Below, one piece after another: positions 7,286-8,995 of a stretch of DNA of 64,000 bases. Under the pieces are notes generated by a model. It was not told the origin of the DNA and did no database searches. It saw only the letters and a list, made by a program, of their open reading frames with translations. The stretch is from the NCBI GenBank assembly GCA_019057865.1, contig JAHLWP010000002.1, positions 33,293-97,292 on the forward strand. Reading direction: 5' to 3'. How positions within the stretch are numbered: position 1 is the stretch's first letter; every line of letters starts with the position of its first letter. A program made the position numbers and the translations under genes. Source of the stretch: Promethearchaeota archaeon (GTDB taxonomy: Archaea; Asgardarchaeota; Lokiarchaeia; Sigyniarchaeales; SOKP01).

Positions 7286-8995
7286 ATGGAAGGAAAAAGA
7301 ATTTCTTATCATGATTCAGTTCAAAAAGTTTATGAGAGAATTAAAAAAGATGGAATGATTAATATTTGGGACCGTTTTGAGGCACAAGGTTTTGGTGGTG
7401 ATCCTGATAAAAGATGTCCTTTTTGTTTGAAAGGTGCAAGATGTGATTTATGTTCAAACGGTCCATGTAGAGCAGATGCTTCAATTGATAAGAGAGGTGT
7501 ATGTGGTATTACCGCTGATGGAATGGCAATGCGAATGATGCTTCTGAGAAACATATTGGGCGCATCAACTTATCACTATCACACAGAACAAACGATTAAA
7601 ACATTAAGAGCAACTGCGGAAGGAAAAACACCATTTAAAATTTCAGAACCAGAAAAGCTCAAAAATTTTGCAAAAAGACTTGGTGTTGATATTTCTGGCT
7701 CAGATAATGATATTGCTCTTCGATTATGTGATTTTGTTAAAGAGGATTTTAACAGAGCCTACGACAAACCTAGCAAAATTGTAGAGACTTTAGCACCCAA
7801 AGAAAGACAAGAAGTATGGAAAGAATTAAATATATTTCCAGGGGGAATTTATGGGGAGATGATGCTTTCTAATAGTTCATGCTTGACAAATGTGGATGGT
7901 TATTATACGAGCTTAGCTCTTAAGGCCATGAGACTTGGAGTTTCCATGGCTTACCAAAGTCAAATTGTAAATGAATATTGCCAAGATATCCTTTTTAATA
8001 TTCCAAGACCCCATAAAATGCGTGTAAATCTTGGAGTGCTTGATCCAGATTATGTCAATGTAATACCTAATGGACATGAACCATTTTTAGGATTTGCTAT
8101 GGTTCAAGTTGCTAGAAAACCAGAATGGCAAGAAAAAGCAAAGGTTGTAGGCGCTAAAGGTCTTAGAATAATAGCCAATATTGAAACTGGACAAGAAATG
8201 ATACAAAGATGGGAGATGGATGATGTTTTTTATGGGTTCACAGGTAATTGGATAATGCAGGAAGCTATTTTAGCGAGTGGTTGTATTGATATTTTTGTAT
8301 GTGATATGAACTGTTCGATGCCAATTGATCCAATCTATGCTGAGAAATATAAATTTAAATTAATCCCTGTAAGTGAAGTAGTAGCTTTTGAAGGTATTAC
8401 AGATAGGTTAAATTATATTCCCCAAGAAGCAGAAAAACAAGCAGAACAACTTTTACAGATGGCAATCGACAACTTTAAAGAGCGAAGGGCAAGTGTGGAA
8501 CCAGTAACAGGATTAGATATGAGTGAAGCTATTGTTGGTTTTTCTACCGAAAGTATCCTTGATGCACTTGGTGGAACTTTAGATCCTCTATTAGATGCTA
8601 TAAAGAATGGCACAATAAGAGGAATTGCTGGATTAATTTCTTGTACAAGCTTAAGAGATAATGGTCAAGATGTCCATACTGTAAGTATTACCAAGGAATT
8701 GATTAAAAGAGATGTATTGGTGTTATCAATGGGGTGTGGTAATGGAGCTCTACAAGTAGCAGGGCTTTGTTCCCCAGAGGCAAAAGAACTCGCAGGTCCG
8801 GGTCTTAAAGCGATATGTGAGAAATTAGGCACACCCCCAGTTCTAAGTTATGGAACATGCACAGATACAGGACGTGTCGCGGATTTAATTGCCATAATTT
8901 CAAATGCTCTTGGAGGAGTCCCAATTCCTGATCTTCCAGTAGTAGCAGTAGCTCCAGAATATATTGTTGGTGGATTCGGAACCAATAAGCTTTAA
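7286..8995 (+). CDS. cooS: Ni-CODH-like carbon monoxide dehydrogenase catalytic subunit, large N-terminal part (split gene)
   Basis: N-terminal Cys cluster CPFCLKGARCDLCSNGPCR...GVCGITADGMAMR. Collinear C-cluster ligand contexts are NGHEP, CDMNCSMP, ISCTS, MGCGNG and YGTCTDTGR. The ORF ends in APEY plus 10 unrelated codons. Confidence 0.8.
   Translation: MEGKRISYHDSVQKVYERIKKDGMINIWDRFEAQGFGGDPDKRCPFCLKGARCDLCSNGPCRADASIDKRGVCGITADGMAMRMMLLRNILGASTYHYHTEQTIKTLRATAEGKTPFKISEPEKLKNFAKRLGVDISGSDNDIALRLCDFVKEDFNRAYDKPSKIVETLAPKERQEVWKELNIFPGGIYGEMMLSNSSCLTNVDGYYTSLALKAMRLGVSMAYQSQIVNEYCQDILFNIPRPHKMRVNLGVLDPDYVNVIPNGHEPFLGFAMVQVARKPEWQEKAKVVGAKGLRIIANIETGQEMIQRWEMDDVFYGFTGNWIMQEAILASGCIDIFVCDMNCSMPIDPIYAEKYKFKLIPVSEVVAFEGITDRLNYIPQEAEKQAEQLLQMAIDNFKERRASVEPVTGLDMSEAIVGFSTESILDALGGTLDPLLDAIKNGTIRGIAGLISCTSLRDNGQDVHTVSITKELIKRDVLVLSMGCGNGALQVAGLCSPEAKELAGPGLKAICEKLGTPPVLSYGTCTDTGRVADLIAIISNALGGVPIPDLPVVAVAPEYIVGGFGTNKL

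Follow-up and report, generated by a model that had tools for sequence, protein, structure and literature searches.

A candidate bulge-helix-bulge intron in the coding sequence of an Asgard archaeal CO dehydrogenase gene

Known archaeal mRNA introns and the interrupted cooS gene

To our knowledge, the cbf5 gene of Crenarchaeota has, since 2002, been the only archaeal protein-coding sequence known to carry an intron that is processed by the splicing endonuclease. It encodes a pseudouridine synthase, and its pre-mRNA contains an intron of the bulge-helix-bulge (BHB) type (Watanabe 2002; Yoshinari 2006; Yokobori 2009, PMC2738675); papers of 2020 and 2025 still cite cbf5 alone. The target of the archaeal splicing endonuclease consists of two 3-nt bulges on opposite strands with a 4-bp helix between them (PMC5829648), and the cut falls between residues 2 and 3 of each bulge (PMC2738675). 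A BHB element is also found in the HVO_1309 mRNA of Haloferax volcanii, where it lies in the 5' untranslated region (PMC7714728). Here we describe a 32-nt segment that interrupts cooS, the gene for the carbon monoxide dehydrogenase (CODH) CooS, in a 64-kb stretch of contig JAHLWP010000002.1 (hereafter the window, meaning the whole of that stretch). On the evidence presented below, this segment is probably an archaeal BHB intron of the hBHBh' form, situated within the coding sequence of an Asgard cooS.

The two open reading frames (ORFs) concerned, 7286-8995 and 8995-9222, are parts of one CooS. The first specifies 569 residues, reading ...VAVAPEY and then ten unrelated codons (IVGGFGTNKL) before a TAA stop, so that the unspliced chain ends in ...APEYIVGGFGTNKL; the second, of 75 residues, starts with the ATG at 8995 inside an overlapping TAATG. 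An earlier note on this DNA had reported the 32-nt break, the unrelated tail and the restart from the letters alone, and all of them, with their coordinates, were confirmed in the sequence. Its proposal that deletion of exactly 8963-8994 (the segment ATTGTTGGTGGATTCGGAACCAATAAGCTTTA) would restore a collinear protein also held: the joined product is a CooS of 634 aa, collinear end to end with solved CODHs and gap-free at the junction. Its best match among CODH structures is 7b7q (E 3.4e-205), with APEYMEQKATIDA aligned to APMYMEQKATIDA; the latter matches APEY/MEQKATIDA of the joined product, and other CODHs align here too. Likewise, the two ORFs match abutting positions of the Prismane/CODH profile (PF03063; Table 1). 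The spliced junction would read ...GCTCCAGAATAT/ATGGAGCAGAAGGC..., with VAVAPEYMEQK as the junction peptide. Because AT follows both boundaries, three excision registers are equivalent, and removal of 8963-8994, 8964-8995 or 8965-8996 gives an identical product. Look-ups of the exact products of both window ORFs found neither on record.

Comparison with orthologs, which the earlier note had recommended, was made with the 80 best cooS loci in 185,579 species-representative genomes. All 80 have an uninterrupted gene of 1,902 nt with an invariant APEYMEQKATIDA. The interruption is thus real and unusual rather than clade-wide, and the extra codons and the restart are no normal feature of the clade.

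A bulge-helix-bulge geometry in register with the reading frame

The minimum free energy (MFE) fold of region 8930-9030 has a z-score of -4.67, with none of 200 shuffled sequences being as stable. It contains a 6-bp exon-exon helix, a symmetric 7x7 internal loop and an 8-bp hairpin with a 9-nt loop. The 7x7 loop was read as 4+3 / 4+3, because a nearest-neighbour folding program displays such an arrangement in this way. Both the hairpin (8964-8971/8981-8988) and a more distant pairing of the exons (8942-8946/9007-9011) had been pointed out in the earlier note and are present in this fold. A further exon pairing that it gave as 8951-8955/8997-9001 is likewise there, its true extent being 6 bp, 8951-8956/8996-9001. 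The extended helix at 8942-8946/9007-9011 varies in register among lineages and is accordingly accessory, outside the core motif. When the internal loop is resolved, the bulges 8961-8963 and 8993-8995 lie on opposite strands with the helix 8957-8960/8989-8992 between them, and they are flanked on the outside by the 6-bp exon-exon helix (h) and on the inside by the 8-bp helix within the putative intron (h'). The published rule places the cuts after 8962 and 8994, which yields APEY/MEQKA in frame, collinear with 7b7q and with the 80 orthologs.

Table 1. Features of the interrupted cooS gene and of its predicted RNA structure (window coordinates)
Feature	Position	Strand	Remarks
cooS exon 1	7286..8962	+	559 codons, Met1-Tyr559; ORF list, CODH structure alignment, Pfam Prismane positions 3-457
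Extended exon-exon helix, 5' strand GUAGC	8942..8946	+	pairs with 9007-9011; in MFE fold
Outer helix h, 5' strand GCUCCA (exon 1)	8951..8956	+	pairs with 8996-9001; 98% of cells paired, nine variants
Central 4-bp helix H, exon strand GAAU	8957..8960	+	pairs with intron 8989-8992; geometry scanner
5' bulge A U / A	8961..8963	+	predicted EndA cut 8962/8963; three columns invariant in nine variants
Putative 32-nt BHB intron	8963..8994	+	same length and site in nine variants
Inner helix h', 5' arm UUGUUGGU	8964..8971	+	three pairs with double compensatory changes
9-nt hairpin loop	8972..8980	+	varies freely between lineages; one invariant column
Inner helix h', 3' arm ACCAAUAA	8981..8988	+	MFE fold and alignment
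Central helix H, intron strand GCUU	8989..8992	+	scanner and alignment; C8990 is the mismatched base
3' bulge U A / A	8993..8995	+	predicted EndA cut 8994/8995; doubles as TAA stop of unspliced upstream frame
cooS exon 2	8995..9222	+	75 codons plus stop; carries conserved MEQKA lysine; Pfam positions 458-512
Outer helix h, 3' strand UGGAGC (exon 2)	8996..9001	+	MFE fold and nine-variant alignment
Extended exon-exon helix, 3' strand GCUAC	9007..9011	+	MFE fold

A scanner was written for the geometry of the motif, and the strength seen at cooS was defined as h of at least 6, H of at least 3 of 4, and h' of at least 8. At this strength the motif occurs in the window at about 7e-7 per (start, end) pair, or about 2e-6 for the three equivalent registers. 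Loose versions are common in this AT-rich DNA (878 scanner matches on both strands). The window is not enriched for the motif relative to Markov resamples, and it thus provides no evidence of further mRNA introns. Seven other BHB motifs in the window that would join ORFs were set aside as chance occurrences spanning the spacers between clearly separate genes, and the strongest other BHB-like match, at 33215-33248, proved to be an AU-rich hairpin with a z-score of -0.28.

The structural signal is that of the BHB introns of archaeal pre-tRNAs and pre-rRNAs, which share the two 3-nt bulges, the 4-bp helix and the flanking helices, and presumably the same EndA and RtcB. As in tRNA introns at position 37/38, the 3' part of the intron is paired with four bases of the exon, which correspond to anticodon-loop positions 32-35. 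Unlike these, the cooS substrate would be an mRNA that is open to translation while it is being made. The paired bases of its exon helices also belong to codons and are thereby constrained by both RNA structure and protein sequence.

Of the known systems the cbf5 intron is the closest, and the similarities are extensive. Both elements are short and ORF-less and lie in a coding sequence (16-44 nt in cbf5, 32 nt in cooS). Both are bounded by a motif of the BHB type, with residues 2 and 3 of each bulge flanking the predicted cut, and both lie beside the codon of a catalytic residue in a highly conserved stretch. They also share a patchy phylogenetic distribution implying gain and loss; the hosts of the cbf5 introns have a hetero-oligomeric, broad-specificity EndA, and so, going by the literature on Asgard archaea, would the host of the cooS element. 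The cbf5 product, however, is an RNA-modification enzyme of Desulfurococcales and Sulfolobales, whereas cooS encodes a metabolic Ni-Fe enzyme in Asgard archaea. The cooS motif is near-canonical hBHBh' with both bulges of 3 nt, whereas most cbf5 introns are relaxed. Splicing of cbf5 has been demonstrated by cDNA and in vitro cleavage, whereas that of cooS is predicted. Membership in the cbf5 intron family itself, which is tied to a catalytic Asp codon and to Desulfurococcales/Sulfolobales, was considered and rejected, the gene here being cooS and the host an Asgard archaeon; the two represent the same class of element. The HVO_1309 transcript resembles the proposed cooS case in being an mRNA processed by the archaeal splicing endonuclease, but its element is in an untranslated leader and its removal rebuilds no reading frame.

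Recurrence, covariation and selection among Asgard cooS genes

Counting only inserts checked at the DNA level, a 32-nt insert is present at the same site of cooS in nine sequence versions, which represent about six lineages of Asgard archaea. These are the versions of the window and of the loci L084, L088, L093, L082, L083 (also L085 and L081), L089, L090 (also L091 and L092) and L095 (also L096 and L097), where the loci grouped together have identical junctions and derive from independent samples or assemblies. A protein search with the read-through tail recovered two fragments that diverge right after APEY, one of which (L082) has a same-site 32-nt insert of different sequence. One metagenome scan that allowed any junction insert of 14-44 nt returned three contigs, each with 32 nt, and further versions came from look-ups of 75- and 76-aa proteins beginning with MEQKA. 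The inserts differ from each other at 1-16 of their 32 positions (six pairs measured). All verified inserts are on low-GC, Asgard-like contigs; L088 is a 276-kb scaffold syntenic with the window, and the insert-bearing cooS of L089 adjoins a gene for an Arf/Ras-family GTPase.

These observations bear directly on the possibility of an assembly or sequencing artefact, which the earlier note had kept among its options. In its favour there is the prior that odd frameshifts are often errors, and some 75-aa gene calls (L086, L087, L094) do stem from upstream breaks. The recurrence of the same site and length across many samples and assemblers, including diverged but structurally equivalent sequences, makes an artefact extremely improbable, and with the same insert in many independent assemblies that option falls. 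The 40 clusters of exactly 75-aa proteins were rejected as a count of 40 intron lineages, given that the genes behind the short calls L086 (5800-6000), L087 (4314-6228) and L094 (745-825) read straight through the junction, being intact across APEYMEQKA and broken further upstream. L087 is moreover bacterial-like, with 62% GC and other fragmented genes.

The structure was fixed from the window alone before any other sequence entered the comparison. In the nine-sequence alignment 98.1% of the 162 pair cells are standard (h 98.1%, h' 98.6%), as against 22-47% when the partners are slid by 1-3 columns. Four pairs have changed on both sides: one U-A/C-G, two G-C/A-U, and an A-U/G-C in the central helix. 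None of 500 shuffles attains the pairing, covariation score or count of doubly changed cells of the real alignment; these statistics are indicative rather than exact, because the nine versions share descent and shuffling overstates their independence. The pairs of helix H in the window are G.U, A-U, AxC and U.G, while the other eight variants have it fully paired (4/4), with an A-U/G-C/AxC series at one pair. The window mismatch A8959 x C8990 is G-C in L088 through a synonymous exon change, GAA to GAG, and A-U in L084 through a C-to-U change in the intron. Four variants folded singly share a common topology, with z-scores of -3.6 to -6.0, and RNAalifold recovers h and h' unguided. The exon-exon helix requires the Glu codon GAG, in a window whose genes use GAA 80% of the time, and full 6-bp complementarity of h is found in 7 of 8 intron-bearing genes counted versus 3 of 80 intronless ones.

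Comparison of exon 2 between intron-bearing lineages gave proportions of nonsynonymous and synonymous differences (pN and pS) of 0.05-0.11 and 0.64-0.83, respectively, and a ratio of nonsynonymous to synonymous substitution (dN/dS) of 0.07-0.09, similar to exon 1. Exon 2 being under strong purifying selection, it has been translated throughout. By contrast, the read-through tails of 3-10 aa and the positions of their stops are unconserved. Where all or most of the gene is available, as in the window, L083, L085, L088, L089 and L090, it has no further disruptions. The view that the insert is a small scar that turned cooS into a pseudogene draws on the shift of frame, as a result of which unspliced translation stops after 10 more codons. 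However, the insert has persisted while synonymous sites neared saturation, and both exons are open in every lineage with a dN/dS of about 0.06-0.12. Since exon 2 is under purifying selection this view was rejected and is assigned only a very small probability.

Predicted splicing, its rivals and the host

The earlier note had listed five explanations without choosing among them. One was excision at the RNA level, which the present results support; the pseudogene scar, the assembly artefact and ribosomal bypass are excluded. What it had not recognised was the BHB motif and the archaeal host, which make the mechanism specific. Most likely, the segment would be removed by EndA cleavage followed by RtcB ligation. 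In the pre-mRNA, GCUCCA of exon 1 would pair with UGGAGC of exon 2, the next four exon bases, GAAU, would pair with the 3' end of the intron, and the 8-bp hairpin of the intron would stack on top, leaving one 3-nt bulge on each strand with 4 bp between them. EndA, the tRNA-splicing endonuclease, would cut each bulge behind its second base, at 8962/8963 and 8994/8995. Exon ligation would then fall to the RNA ligase RtcB, which would probably also close the excised 32-mer into a circle. The resulting mRNA would read ...APEY/MEQKA... and encode the full 634-aa CooS, while unspliced mRNA would specify only a 569-aa protein without the C-terminal 75 residues. What the sequences show is the geometry of the motif, its exact register with the junction that restores the frame, its conservation through compensatory change, selection on both exons and an archaeal host; that the RNA is cut and joined in vivo, and by these two enzymes, is inferred.

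The cooS orthologs and the gene content indicate that the host is an Asgard archaeon. The closest cooS relatives are from Promethearchaeota and other Asgard metagenome-assembled genomes (MAGs), with up to 87% amino acid identity, and the window, which has a G+C content of 29%, encodes an archaeal-type D-aminoacyl-tRNA deacylase. An operon at 28781-31878 combines a ThiF-type E1, a UQ_con E2 and a JAB/MPN protease with a small protein that matches no Pfam family; its resemblance to a eukaryote-like ubiquitin system is in keeping with an Asgard host. Asgard archaea possess a broad-specificity (alpha-beta)2 EndA with an L1 loop (PMC5829648). Scans of the window for tRNAs and Rfam families gave no matches, and a tRNA scan of 33 related loci found none.

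A different way of obtaining a joined product would be translational recoding, in which the ribosome hops over the 32 nt in the manner of T4 gene 60 or shifts frame within them. The T4 system shares with cooS a short non-coding gap with a hairpin and a product that is collinear with uninterrupted homologs. In cooS the stable hairpin comes just after the last exon-1 codon, and in the window lineage both frames are open over a short stretch, at about intron nt 27-30. Yet the T4 bypass needs matched take-off and landing codons and an immediate stop, neither of which is present in cooS. Its take-off codon would be UAU and the codon before the ATG is UUA, CUA or CCA in eight variants and UUG in L095, giving no landing match, and take-off is followed not by a stop but by AUU. 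Frameshifting, which was absent from the options of the earlier note, fares no better. In 4 of 8 variants (L082, L083, L089 and L090) the upstream frame ends at intron nt 10-18, while a stop at nt 21-26 still interrupts the exon-2 frame; with no stretch on which both are open, a single shift cannot join them. A frameshift product would, in addition, carry extra residues inside the invariant APEYMEQKA. Recoding is thus largely refuted by the layout of stops, and we regard it as highly unlikely.

Several points weigh against the proposed intron. Among the database matches there is no contig or protein fragment with the exons of an intron lineage minus the 32 nt. The genes for EndA and RtcB are absent from the 64-kb window, their presence being a matter of the Asgard literature. 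Helix H of the window is only 3/4 paired, with two of these pairs being G.U, and the common descent of the nine versions tempers the comparison among them. The insert is exactly 32 nt in all nine versions, loop length included, though the loop sequence varies; such a fixed length is required by neither a BHB intron nor a split gene. Finally, exon 2 opens with ATG, and Shine-Dalgarno (SD) sites are rare in this genome (8 of 55 window genes), so that separate translation of exon 2 remains compatible with the sequence.

The last of these points underlies the main rival, a genuinely split enzyme. In this case one mRNA would yield a 569-aa (or 562-564-aa) and a 75-aa chain as separate translation products, active CODH would be assembled from the two, and the conserved RNA structure would serve re-initiation, coupling or mRNA stability. 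It would agree with the ATG start of exon 2 and the purifying selection on it, and with the overlap of the upstream stop with the ATG (TAATG or TGATG) in the window, L088, L084, L093 and L095. An SD-like motif was found in none of the eight variants tested, but, with so few window genes having one, this is no counter-evidence, and the argument from SD absence against separate translation was dropped. On the other hand, the Met encoded by this ATG is present without exception in the 80 uninterrupted orthologs, and the ATG is hence no sign of a start site. The stop-start overlap is not conserved either, the stop lying 14-20 nt before the ATG in L082, L083, L089 and L090, and the tails added to the large chain are unconserved. 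Moreover, a split enzyme gives no reason to expect exon bases in the helices, two 3-nt bulges exactly at the only frame-restoring boundaries or covariation between exon and intron. The translationally coupled split enzyme named in the earlier note hence survives as a minority rival, which we judge unlikely.

If the segment is a BHB intron, as we prefer, it might have a further role, either as a post-transcriptional switch or as a mobile element; we consider such a role possible but rather doubtful. In eukaryotes, unconventional splicing of HAC1 and XBP1 mRNA relies on IRE1, a protein endonuclease that recognises RNA structure, to excise a short intron that shifts the frame (26 nt in XBP1). RtcB joins the exons in metazoans, active protein comes from the spliced mRNA alone, and the system is a stress-regulated switch. 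EndA/RtcB splicing might similarly gate active CODH, the unspliced message giving a truncated, catalytically dead 569-aa protein. Unlike EndA, however, IRE1, which is unrelated to it, reads twin stem-loops rather than a BHB. As a mobile element, the intron might pass between the cooS alleles of Asgard archaea, and disappear from them, through recombination or reverse splicing. Quite apart from such a role, intron-bearing genes are scattered in the Asgard cooS group and form no single clade, and for this reason a simple single-gain history is not claimed; the pattern implies repeated precise loss or lateral spread, as has been argued for the cbf5 intron. Mobility would account for the 93% identity of L083 to the intronless L003, against 87% to the window gene. 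No other copy of the 32-mer is found in the window at up to 3 mismatches, and hence it is not a repeated mobile element there.

A search of the open literature up to 2026 (most subscription journals being outside the search) turned up neither a described cooS intron nor a BHB intron in any Asgard mRNA. If the predicted splicing is true, cooS would join cbf5 as only the second family of archaeal protein-coding genes known to depend on such RNA processing, and the use of the tRNA machinery to splice mRNA could no longer be seen as a one-gene curiosity. It would involve a central metabolic enzyme of Asgard archaea and a near-canonical motif kept in several lineages. Were the intron a switch or a mobile element, protein-catalysed mRNA splicing guided by RNA structure would have a biological role in the archaea most closely related to eukaryotes. 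As a practical consequence, gene callers split intron-bearing cooS into a truncated CooS and a 75-aa orphan, and metabolic reconstructions of Asgard MAGs may therefore score the enzyme as broken. The element would also offer a short, well-defined substrate for the activity of Asgard EndA and RtcB on mRNA and for the competition of splicing with coupled transcription and translation.

A few further features of these loci were noted. Directly upstream of cooS, at 5956-7084 of the window, are two divergent AsnC/Lrp-type regulators, an arrangement that is kept in L088, and just downstream of the intron-bearing cooS of L089 the minus strand (3601-5691) encodes a 696-aa LAGLIDADG_3-domain protein. 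Between cooS and the ZIP transporter gene there is about 1.4 kb in L088 (6262-7724, with two small ORFs) and in L084 (924-2342) that the window (9222-9239) does not have. The window and L088 differ by 12.7% in exon 2 and 2.0% in exon 1, beside this downstream indel; a mosaic boundary at the intron was rejected as the cause of the drop in exon-2 identity, the differences being clustered in the last 70 nt. In L093 (1-947) nucleotide identity to the window is 97.6% in exon 1 and 70% in exon 2; this contig is a chimeric assembly or else a recombinant allele whose breakpoint falls at the intron or beyond it. The first approximately 290 nt of L081 (1-290) are unrelated to cooS and the remainder is 100% identical to L083, which might represent a chimeric contig or a rearrangement in exon 1.

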